Part shown: positions 52,854 through 62,055 of the stretch, piece after piece
How the letters are laid out: every line of letters begins with the position of its first letter
Numbering within the stretch: the stretch's first letter is position 1
DNA from: Candidatus Thorarchaeota archaeon
GTDB lineage: Archaea > Asgardarchaeota > Thorarchaeia > Thorarchaeales > Thorarchaeaceae
Assembly: GCA_029855935.1 (NCBI GenBank)
Contig: JAGSHN010000025.1
Location: forward strand, 32,001 to 96,000
Reading direction: 5' to 3'
Length of the DNA: 64,000 bases
The notes under the pieces: model-generated
The model's database searches: none
Seen by the model: only the letters and a program-made list of their open reading frames with translations
What the model was told of the DNA's origin: nothing
Made by a program: the position numbers and the translations under genes

Positions 52854-53078
52854 TCATTCACCACTCCGAGAGGGCTATGGCCTGCACCTAACGAGGTCAA
52901 GCAAGACCTAGAATGATGCGGCCATTCTAGCGTCGTAGAAACACAGGCGCTCATAAGTGCAATCTTTTGACATCGTAAGCGGGTTACTGATAGATTACTC
53001 AATGATTTCTAAAGGAGAACCGAAATATGGTGTGGCAGCGTCCGGTACAGAGGACTATGGTCACGGGGATTGTGAACA

Positions 53079-53800: not shown

Positions 53801-54322
53801 TCAGGCCTCGACATCTCTTCCCGTCGCGGAGCCGTTCTGACCAGACGGACCGTACTCCAACATAGACTCAAGCTTGTCTATGTCAATCATGCCAATCCCG
53901 TTGTGGACACACGTGAAGGACTTGCACAGTTTCTGATCTATGTCACCCCACTTTATGCCCCAGCCCTTGAGAACACCGAGGATGACCTTGAGATCGCGTC
54001 CCTTCTCTGTAAGAGAATACCGAACTCTGATGGGCATTGTGTCAGGTTCCACGACACGTGCCACCACGCCCTCTCGCTCCAGCAGGCTGAGAGACTCGGA
54101 GAGCACCCGGGCCGAGATCTGTTCACCTGTCACATCAACGACACGTCGCAACAGGTCGCTGAAATAGAGCTCTTCCGCGACTACGAGCTCACATAGTATC
54201 CACGGGACCCATTTGCGACCAAGAATCTTCAGGGCCCGCAGGACGGCGCATCTGTCCCTATCTTCTCGACCCAGCTTCAAGATCCTCCATTCAGCTACGC
54301 GCAAGTTAACAGCTCGGCGCAC
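53801..54322 (-). CDS. HxlR (MarR/DUF24) family transcriptional regulator
   Basis: CAVLRALKILGRKW, ISARVLSESL..LE, P.RVRYSLTEKG, WG; additional C-terminal CxxxxC-x-H. Confidence 0.92.
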   Translation of the reverse strand: MRRAVNLRVAEWRILKLGREDRDRCAVLRALKILGRKWVPWILCELVVAEELYFSDLLRRVVDVTGEQISARVLSESLSLLEREGVVARVVEPDTMPIRVRYSLTEKGRDLKVILGVLKGWGIKWGDIDQKLCKSFTCVHNGIGMIDIDKLESMLEYGPSGQNGSATGRDVEA

Positions 54323-54470
54323 CTGTATTTTACGGTTGTGCTGCGTAATCTACTGATGGCAACAGAATCAGGTTACATCGATGAAATGACCTTACGTTTC
54401 CTTCAGCAAATGCTTTAGTATTGCCGAAACACCACTCACAGCACGTGACAATGTGAGGAGAGATGTACTG

Positions 54471-55112
54471 ATGGATCTGGTTTCACTCGTCTTGCTACTC
54501 ATCACCGGAATCATCGCTCTGGTGATGACGATCTTCCTGTTCAAGGACTATGCGGCGAACAAGAAGCTCTACCATATGTGGTGGGGCCTCAGCTCGCTCA
54601 TCCTGTTCTTGGCTGGCGTGCTAATTGTCGCCTTCGACTTTGCCGTACTGGGCAATCCGGCAATACCCATCGTGGCCACATTCATCCCGGTCGGACTGGC
54701 CATCGGTTTGCTATACGCCGTATGGGATGACAAGCCCTATGGACTGTACTACACTATCTACGGCATTCTGATGGTGATCATCCAGATTGTGGCGAGGTAT
54801 GTACCAATCGAGAGCGTAGCCACGCCGTCGCTCCTCGCCGCACACATACCTAGCGGCCTCATTATCGTCCTTGTCCCGCTGATGACGACAATCCGCAAGG
54901 AAACAGAGGCGAGCGCGATACTCTTCAGTCTTGGGGGTATCGCAATCTCACTGGGAGGAATGCTCCTGGCTGCCCTCAAGTTCGACGCTCCTATACTCCC
55001 AGCGGCGACGATCTTCGCTGTCTTGCCCCTTCTCCTGCTGATAGTGAGCGTGCTGTTCTTCCTCGGAATATTCCTCCCCACCAAGTGGAAGGCAGGCCTT
55101 CCGGTCGGATAG
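54471..55112 (+). CDS. About 7-TM membrane protein with two His residues
   Basis: Highly hydrophobic; YHMWW and AAHIPSG. Confidence 0.78.
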   Translation: MDLVSLVLLLITGIIALVMTIFLFKDYAANKKLYHMWWGLSSLILFLAGVLIVAFDFAVLGNPAIPIVATFIPVGLAIGLLYAVWDDKPYGLYYTIYGILMVIIQIVARYVPIESVATPSLLAAHIPSGLIIVLVPLMTTIRKETEASAILFSLGGIAISLGGMLLAALKFDAPILPAATIFAVLPLLLLIVSVLFFLGIFLPTKWKAGLPVG

Positions 55113-55201: not shown

Positions 55202-55219
55202 AGTTATCTACAGGTAACT
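55202..55219. promoter_or_regulatory. Palindromic candidate HxlR operator
   Basis: AGTTATCTACAGGTAACT upstream of TTTTAA; related boxes at 52982-52999 and 54371-54388. Confidence 0.5.
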
Positions 55220-55286: not shown

Positions 55287-56717
55287 ATGACTGAAGAGAG
55301 TACTGCCGAAGGCCCTACCAGCAAGTTTCAGCAGTTTGTCACTTGGCTTGGAAGCTACAGGGGACTCATCACTGCCACAATTGTGTATGAGTTCCTGATC
55401 GTCGTCTTTCTCACGACGTTCTCCGAGCCAGTCACTCAGATGCTGGGACAGCCTCTCATTCCAATTACTCTGGAAGATAGCCACAGGATAGCCAGAATCA
55501 TCATGGTCTATCACTCCCTCGGGATAGTGTTCCTCGGGGCAGTGGTACTCTTTGCTCTCGACCTCTTTGACGTGAGGCCCAAGTTCGAGCCACTGGTCAA
55601 GTGGTCGATCATCCCTGGCTACGTTCTCACCTCAGTCTCAGGGATGACCTTCGCATATCTTCTGCCTGAGAACTGGATTGCACACGCACTGTTCATCGTG
55701 GGACTCACTCTCGTATTCATCAGTGGAGTGCTTCTGTTGATGGGAACGTGGCCAACGAAGAACTTCCCCGAGAAGCAGCCAGAGGGACCCTACCTGTTCG
55801 GAGTCAACTGGGCCCAATGGGCAGTTGCGTTGGTCGTGATTGCCCTGCTGATATCGGCAATGCTGGGAGCAGGTGTCGGCGCCTACTTTGGCAACGGATT
55901 CAAAGCCATTCTCGCCGAGGACTTTCTCCGAGTGGAGGACAAGGACCTCTTTGTGCGTGCCGTTGTTGGCCACCTGCACATCATGCTCGCACTCATCGAT
56001 GCAGCAGTGATGCTCATCGTGTTCAGGTACACCAACCCCGAACAGCGAGGGAAGTGGTACCTTGCCGGGATGATCCTCTCGATCCCCGGAACACTGATCA
56101 TCTCAATTGGCGCGTGGCTCGTCCCCGTCGGCTATGAGAAGGCGCACATGGTGATCAATGTCGGCGCAGTCTTCGCTCTGCTTGCGGCATTCATACTGGC
56201 AATCTGGGGGTGGAAAAAGACTGTCAGAGACGTGCTCGGGGAGGAATACGAGAGCGCCGGCATAGGTCGACGTATTATCGCACTGTTCAAAGATCCCGTG
56301 AAGTTTGGTCTCTACTTCCAGTTCATCTGGGTGAACATTGTTGTCACAGCTCCCGGAATCTATGTTGCCATCAATCTTGAGCACTTCAGAACAGAGATTG
56401 GTGCTGATGTCGAGCGGGCGTTTGCCGTCGGACACTGGCACGTCCTTGGCGTTCTGACTGCTGTGATTGCTCTTCTGCTTGCCTTCGACTACCTTGACGT
56501 CGGCGGTTGGACCAGACAGATTGTCGGGTGGTCGCTGACGCTGGGGAGTATCATAGGTTTCGGCTTTGCCAACGCGTACATGCTTGAGGAGATTGGTATC
56601 GCCACTGGCTTTGCATTCTCGATGATAGATGTCGGTATCATCCTCCTTGTAATCGGCATTGCAGTCTTCTGTATCTATATGCTGGTGCAGATACTGAAGG
56701 GCAGAGCGGTGAAGTAG
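55287..56717 (+). CDS. 12-TM His-rich membrane protein with a heme-copper oxidase subunit I-like layout
   Basis: His in TM2 (YHS), TM4 (IAHA), TM6 (GHLH), TM8 (KAHM) and TM10 (GHWH); 3 bp upstream of heme O synthase. Confidence 0.7.
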   Translation: MTEESTAEGPTSKFQQFVTWLGSYRGLITATIVYEFLIVVFLTTFSEPVTQMLGQPLIPITLEDSHRIARIIMVYHSLGIVFLGAVVLFALDLFDVRPKFEPLVKWSIIPGYVLTSVSGMTFAYLLPENWIAHALFIVGLTLVFISGVLLLMGTWPTKNFPEKQPEGPYLFGVNWAQWAVALVVIALLISAMLGAGVGAYFGNGFKAILAEDFLRVEDKDLFVRAVVGHLHIMLALIDAAVMLIVFRYTNPEQRGKWYLAGMILSIPGTLIISIGAWLVPVGYEKAHMVINVGAVFALLAAFILAIWGWKKTVRDVLGEEYESAGIGRRIIALFKDPVKFGLYFQFIWVNIVVTAPGIYVAINLEHFRTEIGADVERAFAVGHWHVLGVLTAVIALLLAFDYLDVGGWTRQIVGWSLTLGSIIGFGFANAYMLEEIGIATGFAFSMIDVGIILLVIGIAVFCIYMLVQILKGRAVK

Positions 56718-56720
56718 ACA

Positions 56721-57689
56721 GTGGAGATCGGGATTGGCGACGCAGACCAGCTGGAGGGCGGGGACAACAACTCCTCGTCCTCCTTTATCTCACTCCTGGG
56801 CGAACTCATCAAGAGCAAGCAGACAGCCCTCCTGGTCTACACCACAGTGTTCACGTACCTCTTTAGCAGCTGGAATATGGGCATTGACTTCGGCTTTGCC
56901 CTGCTCCTCATTGCCAGCCTTGTACTGGCGGTCTCGGGTTCCACTCTGCTGAATATGTACATCGACAGGGACATCGACGCGGTGATGATTCGGACCAAGA
57001 ACCGGCCTATACCGAGTGGCAAGGTCTCTCCAACGTCGGTGGTGGTGAACGGCGCTGTGATGGTCGGGCTGGGCCTAGTCCTCAGCTGGTTATTCATCAA
57101 CCCCGTGACAACCGCTGTCATTGCAGCTGGATTCGTACTTGATGTTGTGGTCTACTCGGTGTGGCTAAAGCGCAAGACCCCAACATCGATCCTCTTTGGC
57201 GGCATTGCAGGGGGGATGCCTGCTCTTGCTGGCCGGACGGCTGTTGTCGGTCAGGTTGACCTAGTCGGCGTGCTTCTCGCGCTCTTCGTGATAGCGTGGA
57301 TACCACTGCACATCCTCACTCTGGCGATGCTGCCAGAGAACCTTGAGGGCTACCGCCGCGCAGGAGTCCCAATGTGGCCAGTCGTCAGGGGAACGGGTGA
57401 GACGATGATCATCGTGACTCTCTCGGCCATTCTCAGTGCTGTCGTCGTAGTGATGACCGGAGTTGTTCTGAACCTTCACTGGTTGGCTCTGCTCCCGCTG
57501 CTCCTGTTGAGCGCAGCCATAGTCATTAGGGCGGCCGAGAACCTGCGCGCCCCCGACCAAGACAAGACCTTCTGGATCTTCAAGGCGGCATCGGGGTACA
57601 TGGCCTTCGCCTTTCTCTGGCTCTTTATCGGCGTTGTCTTGACACAGGCCATCGGAGACGGCTCCTTGGTACTACAACTACCATTCTAA
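56721..57689 (+). CDS. cyoE: Heme O synthase (protoheme IX prenyltransferase, CyoE/CtaB)
   Basis: NMYIDRDIDAVMIRTKNRPIPSG, YSVWLKRKT, GGIAGGMP.L.G, WIPLH, YRRAGVPM.P. Confidence 0.93.
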   Translation: MEIGIGDADQLEGGDNNSSSSFISLLGELIKSKQTALLVYTTVFTYLFSSWNMGIDFGFALLLIASLVLAVSGSTLLNMYIDRDIDAVMIRTKNRPIPSGKVSPTSVVVNGAVMVGLGLVLSWLFINPVTTAVIAAGFVLDVVVYSVWLKRKTPTSILFGGIAGGMPALAGRTAVVGQVDLVGVLLALFVIAWIPLHILTLAMLPENLEGYRRAGVPMWPVVRGTGETMIIVTLSAILSAVVVVMTGVVLNLHWLALLPLLLLSAAIVIRAAENLRAPDQDKTFWIFKAASGYMAFAFLWLFIGVVLTQAIGDGSLVLQLPF

Positions 57690-59696: not shown

Positions 59697-60356
59697 TCAA
59701 GATGAGAATACCTTGCGCGAGAACAGGTTGACGTCAATGCCGACCTTGCCCGCAAAGAGATCACGCAACAGTTCGAGGTGTTCGTCAATCTCTTTCAGAA
59801 GGCGCTCCAGTGAGTGCGGGGAGATATTCGGCTCTGCTGTCCAGACAGTGAGGTAGTTGCTGACGACGCCTATGTCGACACCGCCCTCCTCAAGGTCCTT
59901 GAAGATGGTTATCTTGACAAGGAACTCGGACTCGTACATATTGAGGACCTCGTTGGCACTCATCACTATCAGGTCCAGATAGCCAACTATGTCCTCCAGG
60001 ACTTGGACATCGCCGACATTTCCACGGAGGCTCTCGACAAAGGTCTGAATCCGGCTGACCCGCTGTCGGAGACCCTCGAACATCTTCATCAGCTTGGTAA
60101 ACTCCTTGATTGAGGACTCCAGTGCGGGGACAAGCCTATCGTACAGAGTGACGAGGAGCTTCCCCCGTGTGTTATCGCGGATGTCCTGGAATCCCTCTAG
60201 TTTCCCCAGGGGTCCATCAAGGTGTTCAATCTGAACCAGTGTGTTGGTGACGGCCTGAATAGACTTGACTGAACTGCGCTGAATCTTGGCCCATCTCTCA
60301 ATGAAAGTATCAATGCCCTCTCGTAGGTCCTCAAGCTCGTCCAGCGGGTCGTCCAC
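59697..60356 (-). CDS. Helical protein resembling the CINP/C1orf109 family
   Basis: RWAKIQ, NMYESEFLVKITIFKDL and YLTVWTAEPNI motifs; amphipathic helices. Confidence 0.6.
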   Translation of the reverse strand: MDDPLDELEDLREGIDTFIERWAKIQRSSVKSIQAVTNTLVQIEHLDGPLGKLEGFQDIRDNTRGKLLVTLYDRLVPALESSIKEFTKLMKMFEGLRQRVSRIQTFVESLRGNVGDVQVLEDIVGYLDLIVMSANEVLNMYESEFLVKITIFKDLEEGGVDIGVVSNYLTVWTAEPNISPHSLERLLKEIDEHLELLRDLFAGKVGIDVNLFSRKVFSS

Positions 60357-60450: not shown

Positions 60451-62055
60451 CTACAGGCCCTGTTGCAACGCCCTACGGCGGTTCTCAAGCTCCTCAATCT
60501 CGGCCTCTATCTCCCGGACCTGATCTTGAAATATCGAGTCCTCAATCTTTCCGTCCTCGTAGAGCCTCTTGAAGTGGTCGAGCTTGGCCCTAAGAACCGA
60601 CTCTCGCACCTCAAGCTCCCTCAACCGTGCCCGCTTCTCAGACACGAGCTGCCTCAGCTCGTCCTCAAGCCTGAATATCTCCTCCTCAAGCTCGGCCTTC
60701 AATCTGGAGTAGAGAGAGGAGTCAACCTTTCCCTCAGTGTAGAGGTCTACGAGATGGAGGAGCGCCTTTCTCGTTGCATCTCGTCGAGCCATTATCTCCT
60801 GTGCGAAGTCGTGGGACTCTACAAGACCGAGCCGCGTAGCAAGGTGTGGGGTCGTCAGACCCTGCAGAAGCAGACTTGTCATCAGAACGAGAAAGACAAT
60901 GGCATTCAGATCCCGGCCCGACTGCTCAAAGCCGGTGATCTCGTAGCTCGTTATCGCAGCCACGACGATTGCTGCCAACGCTGCACTTGCAACCCCCTTG
61001 ACCCCTGCCCAGCTGACAAAGAACCTGTCCCGCCACGACATACTTCTGTCGTGGGCTGTGACAAGGAACACAGCCACCGGGCGGGCGACGAGGATGACCA
61101 GTACCGATGTCATCAGGCCAAGGGCCACAATGGCAGGACTGTTCATCAGATACTGCAGGTCCACAGTGGCGCCAAGGAGTATGAAGACCACTATCTCGAA
61201 AGCGAAGGAGACGTTCTTCATAGCGCCGCGCATCGACTTCTGCGGGAGGGGCTCCATACCCATCCGCCGGGCATTAGCCATAAAGATCCCTGCGAAGACC
61301 GACGCGAGTGCACCAGGATGAATGCCGAGCTGAGCAAAGATCTCTCCGAGACCGTAGGCAAGGATTGGTGTCGTGGCTGTCAGGATGGAGATGGTCGTGT
61401 CCTCAGCCGTACGGATGATGATTCGACCGATGACGTGAGCAATGGCAAATCCAGTCACGACACCAATTATCATGCTCAGAAGGAACTCCTCGATGATGAC
61501 GTACCAGGCCACCGAGAGAGCGGGAATCACGAGCGGCATAAAGACAGTGATGACAAGGACCACAGACGTCGCGTCATTGAATACTGCTTCGCCCTCAAGA
61601 ATAGAGAACAGGCGGCGCTTGACACGTACACCACCAGACTCCAGAACAGAGAACAGCGCAGCAGGGTCGGTGGGCGACAAGATCGCGCCGATGACAAAGG
61701 CCATCAGGCCCATTGCCGAGAACAGCCCAATGGTGATGCCGGCGACTATCGACGTGATGACGACACCCAGAGTTGCCAGGAGCATGACATTAGTCAGCGA
61801 GAACCGCAGCTCTCGGATATTCATCGTCAGCCCAGCATAGAACAGTACAGCCGCAAGTGTCAGCTGCGCAACAACATCCAAGCCCACAACCTCGCCGTAG
61901 ACCGATCCGAGCGGCATCACCTGACCAATGATGACGCCAGCGAGGATGAGCGGGATTGGGTACGGGAACCGATATCTCTCCGCGAATTTTGCTATCACCA
62001 CGCCCCCAATCAGGACGGGCGCAATCACGTAGAGGTCGACGGCCACACCATCCAC
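60451..62055 (-). CDS. CPA1 Na+/H+ antiporter with C-terminal coiled/SHOCT-like tail
   Basis: LFYAGL, LSPTDPAA, LEGEAVFND, ARPVAV, WAGVKG, LQGLT. Confidence 0.92.
   Translation of the reverse strand: MDGVAVDLYVIAPVLIGGVVIAKFAERYRFPYPIPLILAGVIIGQVMPLGSVYGEVVGLDVVAQLTLAAVLFYAGLTMNIRELRFSLTNVMLLATLGVVITSIVAGITIGLFSAMGLMAFVIGAILSPTDPAALFSVLESGGVRVKRRLFSILEGEAVFNDATSVVLVITVFMPLVIPALSVAWYVIIEEFLLSMIIGVVTGFAIAHVIGRIIIRTAEDTTISILTATTPILAYGLGEIFAQLGIHPGALASVFAGIFMANARRMGMEPLPQKSMRGAMKNVSFAFEIVVFILLGATVDLQYLMNSPAIVALGLMTSVLVILVARPVAVFLVTAHDRSMSWRDRFFVSWAGVKGVASAALAAIVVAAITSYEITGFEQSGRDLNAIVFLVLMTSLLLQGLTTPHLATRLGLVESHDFAQEIMARRDATRKALLHLVDLYTEGKVDSSLYSRLKAELEEEIFRLEDELRQLVSEKRARLRELEVRESVLRAKLDHFKRLYEDGKIEDSIFQDQVREIEAEIEELENRRRALQQGL

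Follow-up and report, generated by a model that had tools for sequence, protein, structure and literature searches.

The window analysed here, a stretch of 64,000 nucleotides from a contig of a Candidatus Thorarchaeota archaeon, contains a gene cluster whose central member encodes a protein with 12 transmembrane helices (referred to below as the 12-TM protein). The features of the cluster are listed in Table 1. A gene of the UbiA family starts 3 nucleotides past the stop codon of the 12-TM gene. On the other side lie the gene of a 7-TM companion protein and that of a transcription regulator. The table also includes the three internal repeats of the 12-TM protein and the codons, each of which was checked, of the seven histidines on which much of the interpretation depends.

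Table 1. Genes, internal repeats and histidine codons of the cluster (positions are those of the window)
Feature	Positions	Strand	Details
HxlR-family transcription regulator	53801..54322	-	PF01638 9.6e-17; divergent from the cluster
7-TM companion protein	54471..55112	+	213 aa from the M at 54471; conserved beside the 12-TM gene
12-TM protein gene	55287..56717	+	476 aa; ORF translates without stops
Repeat 1	55356..55748	+	TM1-4, residues 24-154; H76 in TM2, H133 at the outer end of TM4
H76 codon	55512-55514		TM2, motif YH
H133 codon	55683-55685		TM4
Repeat 2	55809..56246	+	TM5-8, residues 175-320; GHLH in TM6, H287 at the outer end of TM8
H229 codon	55971-55973		TM6, GHLH
H231 codon	55977-55979		TM6, GHLH
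H287 codon	56145-56147		TM8
Repeat 3	56295..56696	+	TM9-12, residues 337-470; GHWH in TM10
H383 codon	56433-56435		TM10, GHWH
H385 codon	56439-56441		TM10, GHWH
CtaB/CyoE-like haem O synthase, UbiA family	56721..57689	+	PF01040 6.7e-48; TIGR01473

The 12-TM protein belongs to a narrow family: among 1.84 billion proteins it has 292 representatives, which come from Asgard archaea and a small number of bacterial groups. A search of the literature found no account of it. Searches of Pfam, NCBIfam and (with phmmer) the PDB using the protein returned only noise. PF00115 (COX1) gave no match even at E<=10, nor at this threshold did the Pfam model of NnrS (PF05940), a 12-TM protein that contains haem and copper. 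A profile built from 40 members retrieved no chain of a haem-copper oxidase (HCO) from the PDB; its single match, to an Mrp antiporter, was spurious.

Twelve transmembrane helices had been read from the sequence in an earlier note on this DNA, and the AF2 model (pLDDT 91.2, pTM 0.91) does contain 12 long helices (residues 24-43, 64-93, 101-125, 130-154, 175-198, 221-249, 256-277, 286-320, 337-362, 373-402, 407-432 and 440-470). The loops on the N-terminal side carry 12 lysines and arginines versus 5 in the other loops. This argues for an N-in topology, as in HCO, and places all seven histidines in the outer half of the membrane.

The model was compared with known structures; the earlier note had proposed such a comparison with COX1 and NorB. 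The best ten VIA-align matches were exclusively subunits I of HCO and nitric oxide reductases (NOR), from ten families, with Z 15.6-21.2 (rmsd 3.9-4.8, 387-426 residues aligned); the first different fold had Z 10.7. Among the best 50 Foldseek matches, 50 were HCO subunit I. The HCO/NOR subunit I fold is therefore matched strongly, and it is the only one that is. The predicted structure is a 12-TM core with a pseudo-threefold arrangement of three 4-helix arcs. Its closest matches are CcoN of the cbb3 oxidase (3mk7_A, Z 21.2) and NorB of cNOR (4xyd_A, Z 20.9), both with an rmsd of 3.9-4.0 over 387-389 residues.

The protein includes nine histidines. When 40 Asgard and bacterial homologues are aligned (mean column identity 36%), seven of these never vary and account for 7 of only 30 invariant columns; a member that is 24% identical (L053) retains all seven. 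Both their placement in TM2, TM4, TM6, TM8 and TM10 and the conservation that the earlier note wished to see checked are thus upheld. H76 is preceded by Y75. H133 and H287 sit 1-3 residues from the ends of their helices and look too shallow to serve as axial ligands at the depth of the histidines in TM2, TM6 and TM10. TM12 has no histidine but D448 instead, and a further histidine is found at position 219 in 32 of the 40 family members.

In HCO, the CuB/FeB site is formed by one helix VI histidine (in HPxxY or its NOR equivalent) together with an HH pair on helix VII. The HxH of helix X supplies ligands to the high-spin and the low-spin haem, and the helix II histidine is the second ligand of the low-spin haem. 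To our knowledge, every member of the superfamily has a three-ligand copper or iron site next to its catalytic haem. The 12-TM protein lacks the canonical CuB motifs, as had been remarked from the sequence: TM7 (residues 256-277) has no histidine at all and there is no HPxxY after any histidine of the protein. A non-canonical metal site, which might contain copper, could form from H229/H231, H287 and the histidine at position 219.

Profile alignment connects the last repeat of the protein with the haem ligands of HCO. Over the full length, hhalign places GHWH on the helix-X GHFH of eight Asgard COX1 proteins (E 0.0027). Repeat 3 by itself aligns with COX1 TM9-12 (Prob 66.5%, E 5.4e-5), with GHWH again on GHFH, the ligands of haem a3 and haem a. 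H76 falls on the TM2 haem histidine of COX1 in a near-global alignment of low confidence (Prob 7%) and also transitively, through the matches of repeat 1 with repeat 3 and of COX1 TM1-4 with TM9-12. H287 falls on the helix VII HH pair in a low-confidence alignment only, and the alignment of TM6-TM8 to HCO is unreliable.

The three 4-TM repeats that the earlier note had proposed are borne out by comparison of their profiles. The hhalign score is 42.6 for repeats 2 and 3 (Prob 89.5%, E 2e-6), 37.0 for repeats 1 and 3 (E 1.6e-5) and 26.1 for repeats 1 and 2, versus 12-13 for column-shuffled profiles (sd 2-3, maximum 20.4) and 13-21 for unrelated membrane families. H229 is matched with H383, H231 with H385 and H133 with H287. 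When the thirds of canonical COX1 are treated in the same way, two pairs do no better than the nulls (12.1 and 10.4), and the remaining pair reaches only 25.5. The description of the protein as more symmetric than canonical COX1 consequently holds, in that all three of its repeat pairs are detectable in sequence. The register of TM2 is, by eye, ambiguous by two residues: H76 corresponds to H385 if the downstream residues are followed and to H383 if the spacing from a conserved arginine is. For this reason sequence symmetry cannot assign the histidines to pores.

CcoN and NorB are minimal 12-TM members of the HCO superfamily and resemble the 12-TM protein in their N-in topology, in a TM2 histidine and a TM10 HxH at the outer third of the membrane, in their similar size and in having no extra helices. 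They differ in that sequence identity is about 10% and that PF00115 misses the 12-TM protein, which also lacks the TM7 HH pair, a TM6 histidine in an HPxxY or NOR context and the cross-linked tyrosine. It has a second HxH in TM6, extra invariant histidines where TM4 and TM8 end on the outer side, and three repeats that are still recognisable in sequence. A subunit II-type partner is also missing, as no cytochrome c or cupredoxin domain is encoded among the cluster neighbours. The HCO families eNOR, bNOR, sNOR, gNOR and nNOR are recognisable as COX1 by sequence. These families, which were introduced by Murali et al. (2024; PMC11214002), were found by genome mining and are likewise divergent HCO-fold enzymes without the active-site tyrosine; according to that paper, they keep a three-ligand metal site, with an aspartate replacing one histidine in gNOR. 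The 12-TM family differs in having neither the motif for this site nor a COX1 signature, and no mention of it was found in PMC11214002.

The strongest functional clue, which the earlier note had missed, is the gene directly downstream. Judged by its sequence, this is a CtaB-like haem O synthase dedicated to the 12-TM family. It scores 214.2 bits with TIGR01473 (cut-off 210.3), and the runner-up NCBIfam models are also those of haem O synthase. Among 400 Asgard genomes, the 12-TM family is present in 61, the CtaB-like gene in 72 and COX1 in 27; in about 48 of the 61 the CtaB-like gene lies immediately downstream of the 12-TM gene. In the Asgard lineages without an oxidase, the CtaB-like gene is found almost exactly where the 12-TM family is. 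For example, 30 genomes of five COX1-less families (f1, f7, f8, f21 and f22) have both genes, the exceptions being one genome with only a 60-aa remnant of the 12-TM family and one with CtaB only. The linkage is looser at the bacterial loci (three of the eight contexts seen).

A tree of CtaB proteins provides further support for this association. All 14 CtaBs encoded next to a 12-TM gene, two of them bacterial, fall into one clade (22 rows, SH-aLRT 98) that includes no COX1-linked CtaB. With a midpoint root only, this clade is sister to the COX1-adjacent CtaBs, both being contained within a wider CtaB-like set. The A-family COX1/CyoB of Heimdall-group Asgard archaea (PF00115; L016-L025) has TM9-12 in register with repeat 3 and shares with the 12-TM family the use of a CtaB-family haem O synthase. 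It differs in occurring independently: most carriers of the 12-TM family have no COX1, and the CtaBs that go with COX1 and with the 12-TM family belong to different clades.

In the genome itself, which is 97.3% complete, COX1, CtaA, cytochrome bd (PF01654) and CcsA/CcmF were not found. HemB and HemC, which act early in tetrapyrrole synthesis, are missing as well, and haem would therefore have to be imported; no importer was identified. MqnA was not found in the genome, which holds three further UbiA genes.

The 7-TM companion adjoins the 12-TM gene in other contigs also (L003, L006, L007, L011, L013, L014, L015 and L028). Its family comprises 18 clusters and has two invariant histidines, H35 and H125 (the latter in HIPSGL). 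The AF2 model has 7 helices (pLDDT 91.3). The fold search returned only generic GPCR-like 7-TM matches (Z about 14; 290 chains reached a Z of at least 8), and the companion is neither COX3 nor CtaA. A co-fold prediction of the 12-TM protein with three haems and the companion gave an ipSAE of 0.00 and no contacts or ligand positions, and speaks neither way.

The HxlR gene is similarly placed in a Heimdallarchaeota contig (L003). The bacterial members have a variety of neighbours: AhpC/Redoxin genes (L027, L069 and L067), genes for hemerythrin-PAS sensors (L027, L069 and L066), NDH-2 together with COX1 (L027 and L069), a Crp/FNR regulator (L026) and menaquinone genes (L066). A CopD gene occurs in the Anaerolineae cluster L026. 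An FGE-sulfatase domain, which has a copper-enzyme fold, is fused to one family member (P0125) and encoded adjacent to another (L028). The search for fusions found no family protein of more than 834 aa, which is weak evidence. In shorter fusions the added domain is FGE-sulfatase or a PD40 propeller, and neither CtaB nor a cytochrome domain is among them.

We conclude that the 12-TM protein is the core subunit of an undescribed family with the predicted HCO/NOR subunit I fold and is probably a haem enzyme. We infer its haem binding, its use of haem O, its substrate and its electron donor. The explanation towards which we lean, with a confidence somewhat better than even, is that the family, in which the canonical CuB/FeB motif is missing, uses electrons from the membrane to reduce an oxidant derived from oxygen. 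A low-spin haem would be held by H76 (TM2) and H385 (TM10), and a second haem, most likely haem O, would be bound to H383 (TM10) at the position of the catalytic haem. The co-transcribed haem O synthase that is specific to the family would produce this haem O, with scavenged haem b as its starting material. H229/H231 (TM6), H287 and H133 would line the third pore, which is normally empty, and the site that CuB occupies in HCO, where they may bind a third haem or a non-canonical metal. Electrons would come from the membrane, probably from quinol or through the 7-TM companion with its two histidines, and O2, H2O2 or NO would be reduced, protecting an anaerobe that has no ordinary oxidase. The gene contexts count in favour of such an enzyme: the HxlR regulator here and in L003, and peroxiredoxin, hemerythrin-PAS, NDH-2 with COX1, Crp/FNR and menaquinone genes in bacteria. 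Several points count against it. Without CuB and a cross-linked tyrosine, canonical O2-reduction chemistry is unavailable. The hhalign probabilities between the family and HCO are weak (7-66%), PF00115 misses the protein, and the TM6-TM8 alignment is unreliable. The cluster encodes no subunit II-like partner, the genome lacks HemB and HemC and has no identified haem importer, the CtaB linkage is looser in bacteria, and H133 and H287 look too shallow.

A more far-reaching version of this idea, which we consider unlikely, is that the protein is a quasi-symmetric, copper-free tri-haem relative of HCO that preserves a pre-CuB state. Three haems, one in each pore of a copper-free relative, had been suggested in the earlier note. 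The protein would consist of three copies of a 4-TM unit whose second helix carries histidine, with a haem at each of the three helix II/VI/X interfaces, and its third pore would be occupied and possibly catalytic (H229 with H133). We know of no oxidase in which this pore is not blocked. If the protein does hold three haems, the closest functional precedent is cytochrome bd, a copper-free tri-haem quinol oxidase with which anaerobes and haem auxotrophs scavenge O2, although it is unrelated in fold and sequence. The architecture expected of an untriplicated ancestor is that of styrene oxide isomerase (8pnu; PMC11374702), a homotrimer of 4-TM subunits with three haems b at the interfaces and one histidine for each. 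Unlike a redox enzyme, however, this protein catalyses an isomerisation. In the structure comparison its monomer aligned with residues 333-468, in repeat 3, at Z 10.2 over 133 residues, a Z of 10 being in the range of generic 4-helix bundles, and a merged profile of repeats 2 and 3 matched neither styrene oxide isomerase nor HCO in an hmmsearch of the PDB. Were the tri-haem arrangement true, the origin of the oxidase fold from a triplicated haem-binding 4-helix protein, trimeric like styrene oxide isomerase, would have direct support from sequence.

It is also conceivable, but decidedly unlikely, that the protein handles haem as an importer, chaperone or store, its outward histidine cluster catching external haem, with the haem O synthase either receiving haem from the protein or supplying it. 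A genome without HemB and HemC must obtain its haem from outside; all seven histidines are in the outer half of the membrane, the canonical catalytic metal site is missing, and no other haem enzyme was found in the genome to explain a need for haem. This last point cuts both ways, because haem O then has no recipient. Moreover, the HCO fold is known from redox enzymes only, the helix-X HxH is a hallmark of permanently bound haems, and bacterial operons with NDH-2, COX1 and peroxiredoxin suit a redox role.

We think it improbable that the protein merely keeps the oxidase fold as a transporter or sensor of a non-haem metal (copper, iron, zinc or nickel), with a UbiA-type neighbour that prenylates another substrate. 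The CopD gene in L026 and the FGE-sulfatase fused in P0125 and adjacent in L028 point in this direction, as does the TIGR01473 score, which is barely above the cut-off here and falls below it for many members of the linked clade. Against this, the tree places the linked UbiA clade within genuine CtaB lineages and not with other UbiA subfamilies, the runner-up models are haem O synthases too, and the helix-X HxH and the TM2 histidine align with haem ligands. Least probable of all is a role analogous to that of haem A synthase, in which the protein would turn haem O into another haem species: the tight linkage to a haem O synthase (as is often seen for CtaA and CtaB), the absence of CtaA from the genome and the His-rich, repeated 4-helix units resembling those of CtaA would fit, but the fold is that of HCO subunit I and not of CtaA/Cox15, haem A synthesis requires O2-dependent chemistry, and the product would have no consumer in a genome that lacks a recipient oxidase.

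What is new here is that the repeats are seen by profile, that the family co-occurs with a CtaB that forms its own clade, and that repeat 3 aligns on the helix-X ligands. New too are the absence of COX1, CtaA, cytochrome bd, HemB and HemC from the genome and the peroxiredoxin, hemerythrin-PAS, NDH-2 and COX1 genes next to bacterial homologues. The threefold repeat, being detectable in sequence, makes the long-assumed origin of the oxidase fold by triplication directly testable. If the 12-TM protein binds haem, then the same fold, haem ligands and dedicated haem O synthase without the three-ligand site would widen the known roles of this scaffold. The family would explain the 'haem O synthase' of anaerobic Asgard archaea and Anaerolineae that have no oxidase, an annotation that on its own otherwise invites the wrong inference of aerobic respiration. 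It would also bear on the debate about oxygen and eukaryogenesis, by adding a possible haem enzyme handling O2, reactive oxygen species or NO to Asgard lineages that have been counted as strictly anaerobic.

The product of the unannotated 12-TM gene (476 amino acids on translation) is most likely a haem-binding redox enzyme with the fold of the haem-copper oxidoreductases (HCOs), a reading that we hold with reasonable though far from complete confidence; all the evidence is computational. Searches of Pfam, NCBIfam and the PDB sequences with this protein returned only noise, and a profile of 40 homologues reached no HCO chain in the PDB. The AlphaFold2 model, for which the alignment of the same 40 homologues served as input, contains 12 long helices (pLDDT 91.2, pTM 0.91). 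In an exhaustive VIA-align search the first ten ranks were occupied by ten different HCO or nitric-oxide reductase (NOR) families: cbb3 CcoN (3mk7_A, Z 21.2, rmsd 3.9 over 387 residues), cNOR (4xyd_A, Z 20.9) and others including bo3, caa3, ba3, mitochondrial COX1 and qNOR, with Z down to 15.6, compared with 10.7 for the best other fold. The best 50 Foldseek matches were all HCO subunit I. The modelled fold is unambiguously that of HCO/NOR subunit I, which bears out the resemblance proposed in an earlier note on this DNA. Profiles point to a weak but correctly placed link to COX1. When the family was aligned with eight Asgard A-type COX1 sequences using hhalign, TM9-12 were matched with GHWH on GHFH (E 0.0027), the motif through which helix X binds the high- and low-spin hemes. 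The last third alone scored 34.4 (Prob 66.5%, E 5.4e-5), with reversed-sequence nulls at 18 or below.

Coordinates of the 12-TM gene, its neighbours and related features in other genomes (window positions unless a locus or genome is named)
Feature	Position	Strand	Remarks
12-TM gene	55287-56717	+
CtaB-like gene	56721-57689	+	UbiA family
7-TM companion	54471-55112	+
HxlR regulator	53801-54322	-
GGTTAC / GGTAAC boxes	52982-52998, 54371-54391, 55203-55218		Precede three genes for membrane proteins around the HxlR regulator
Na+/H+ exchanger	60451-62055	-	PF00999 at residues 20-406; C-terminal stretch weakly matches CdvA-like coiled-coil PF18822 (E 6.8e-5, below cut-off)
219-aa protein	59697-60356	-	Sub-threshold match to C1orf109-like ribosome-biogenesis family PF15011 (E 3.9e-5)
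12-TM remnant	G016:C1:790953-791135		60 residues, profile positions 69-128; closed genome
Very divergent subfamily, Asgard group f26 (G287-G291)	e.g. L053:2140-3546	-	24% identity to window protein
558-aa COX1-like protein	L065:67-1740 (G051, C135:4712-6112)	-	PF00115 over whole length, 160 bits; adjoins CtaB gene
FGE-sulfatase gene	L028:4194-5132		Between 12-TM gene and UbiA

Seven of the nine His residues are invariant across the 40 sequences (one Asgard and one bacterial clade, 32-69% identical to the window protein), where they account for seven of 30 invariant columns, and all seven are kept in a 24%-identical member from a different Asgard family. They are H76 in TM2, directly preceded by an invariant Y75; H133, three residues into TM4; H229 and H231 in the GHLH of TM6; H287, the second residue of TM8; and H383 and H385 in the GHWH of TM10. 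Translation and model place them in the five helices named in the earlier note, and their conservation holds. Its observation that the TM7 HH pair and HPxVY are absent was also correct: TM7 carries no His and there is no HPxxY motif in the protein. A positive-inside count of 12 versus 5 gives an N-in topology, as in HCO subunit I, and locates all seven His in the outer membrane half. In the model H133 and H287 lie at extreme helix ends, shallower than the His of TM2, TM6 and TM10, a depth at which they would more plausibly bind propionates or a metal than serve as axial ligands.

The canonical CuB ligand set is absent from the window protein and, as read from its sequence, the CuB motif is missing. 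In a near-global COX1 alignment of low confidence (Prob 7%), H287 falls on the first His of the HH pair and position 219, which is His in 32 of the 40 members and Lys in the window protein, on the His of HPxVY. A non-canonical metal site formed by H229/H231 with H287, and sometimes H219, is therefore possible.

For analysis of internal repeats, the alignment was divided into TM1-4, TM5-8 and TM9-12 (R1, R2 and R3) and the sub-profiles compared pairwise with hhalign. R2-R3 scored 42.6 (Prob 89.5%, E 2e-6), R1-R3 37.0 (79%, E 1.6e-5) and R1-R2 26.1. Column-shuffled targets (30 each) gave means of 12-13 (sd 2-3, maximum 20.4), reversed sequences 14-18 with one at 25.6, and unrelated membrane families 13-21. 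The thirds of canonical COX1 scored 12.1, 10.4 and 25.5, which gives quantitative support to the proposal of a more symmetric relative. The register pairs H229 with H383, H231 and H76 with H385, and H133 with H287, and the plan of each repeat is a 4-TM unit with His in the second helix and at the outer tip of helix four; TM12 lacks an equivalent of H133/H287, with D448 nearby. The TM2 register is ambiguous by two residues and the pore faced by H76 is consequently not assignable from sequence symmetry alone. R2 also resembles COX1 TM9-12 (score 24.8) more than COX1 TM5-8 (10.5), which fits either an ancestral state that disappeared from COX1 with the evolution of its CuB site or internal re-duplication at a later time. 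That the protein represents a tri-haem, pre-copper ancestor seems to us unlikely, if worth keeping in mind. A structural precedent exists in styrene oxide isomerase, whose 4-TM subunits form a trimer with three hemes at the interfaces (PMC11374702); the similarity of this enzyme to one 12-TM repeat (Z 10.2) is unspecific, and no relation to the repeats was found in sequence.

The UbiA-family gene begins 3 nt 3' of the 12-TM stop codon and scores 214.2 bits against TIGR01473, the haem O synthase equivalog (cut-off 210.3). Among 400 Asgard genomes, the 12-TM family (E<=1e-10) is present in 61, the CtaB-like gene in 72 and COX1 in 27, the last of these only in four Heimdall-group families. Within COX1-less families the first two occupy essentially the same genomes: the same 3/85 in group f1, plus the window genome, and the same 17/135 in f22, with counts for the two genes of 1 and 1 in f7, 5 and 4 in f8, and 4 and 5 in f21. 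Across these families 30 genomes have both, one has CtaB only and one has only a 60-aa family remnant. This last genome, G016, lacks the CtaB-like gene, as if both genes had been lost together. In about 48 of these 61 carriers the CtaB gene immediately follows the 12-TM gene on the same strand, exceptions being mostly at contig ends. In a tree of 34 CtaB-like proteins, all 14 adjacent copies (two bacterial) fall in one clade of 22 (SH-aLRT 98) that excludes every COX1-adjacent CtaB, and a genome that carries both systems encodes one CtaB of the COX1-linked and one of the 12-TM-linked kind. The f26 CtaB-like gene, on a different contig from its 12-TM gene (all seven His kept), is the deepest branch of this clade. 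The 12-TM family itself (292 representatives in 1.84 billion proteins) splits cleanly into Asgard and bacterial clades (SH-aLRT 100).

The window genome (97.3% complete) contains no COX1, CtaA, cytochrome bd or cytochrome c maturation protein family, and searches for other respiratory haem proteins found none. HemB and HemC are also missing, so the organism is probably unable to make tetrapyrroles, yet the haem O synthase-like gene coupled to the 12-TM gene is retained. The simplest reading would be a self-contained module in which scavenged haem is farnesylated for the 12-TM protein alone. Haem-auxotrophic lactic acid bacteria likewise activate cytochrome bd with external haem.

Neighbouring genes provide hints of function. 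The 7-TM companion, with two invariant His, lies upstream of the 12-TM gene and adjoins it in eight other loci, one bacterial; beyond it is a divergent HxlR regulator, an arrangement shared with a Heimdallarchaeota contig. In bacteria, a conserved cluster on contigs L027 and L069 contains NDH-2, proteins of 34 and 140 aa, COX1 (as two separate genes in L027), AhpC/Redoxin, the 12-TM gene and a sensor of the DUF438-hemerythrin-PAS type, and resembles a compact module that responds to oxygen or peroxide. At other bacterial loci the gene occurs with UbiA and AhpC (L067), beside menaquinone (futalosine) genes and a divergent gene for hemerythrin-PAS (L066), behind a Crp/FNR regulator, cupin and CopD (L026), or with FGE-sulfatase, UbiA and 7-TM companion genes (L028). 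One member (P0125, 785 aa) carries a C-terminal FGE-sulfatase domain, which has the fold of the copper-dependent formylglycine-generating enzyme, and PD40 beta-propellers are fused to P0184 and P0226. The nearby peroxiredoxins, sensors of the O2/NO type and regulators of the FNR and HxlR types are circumstantial indications of oxygen-derived oxidants as substrate, and the quinone genes of quinol as electron donor. Separately, the 558-aa protein of a Heimdall-group genome lacks both the HxH of helix X and the HH of helix VII, with H-x4-H-x2-H in TM6 and H-x5-H in the TM10 region, and may be another aberrant HCO.

In the redox enzyme that we favour, a low-spin haem would sit on H76/H385 and haem O on H383, the TM6 HxH with the TM4 and TM8 His would form a remodelled distal or third site, and O2, H2O2 or NO would be reduced. 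A haem-handling protein is a good deal less probable; a non-haem metal protein, whose UbiA-type neighbour prenylates another substrate, is improbable, and an enzyme that modifies haem O slightly more so. The families by which the HCO superfamily was recently enlarged retain a metal site with three ligands (PMC11214002), whereas the 12-TM family lacks the canonical set; no description of it was found in the searchable literature. With a non-canonical metal site as a caveat, what is new here is the quantified internal repeat of the family, the conservation of its 7-TM companion, bacterial gene contexts related to oxidants, the CtaB clade tested with bacterial members, and the phylum-wide table of co-occurrence.
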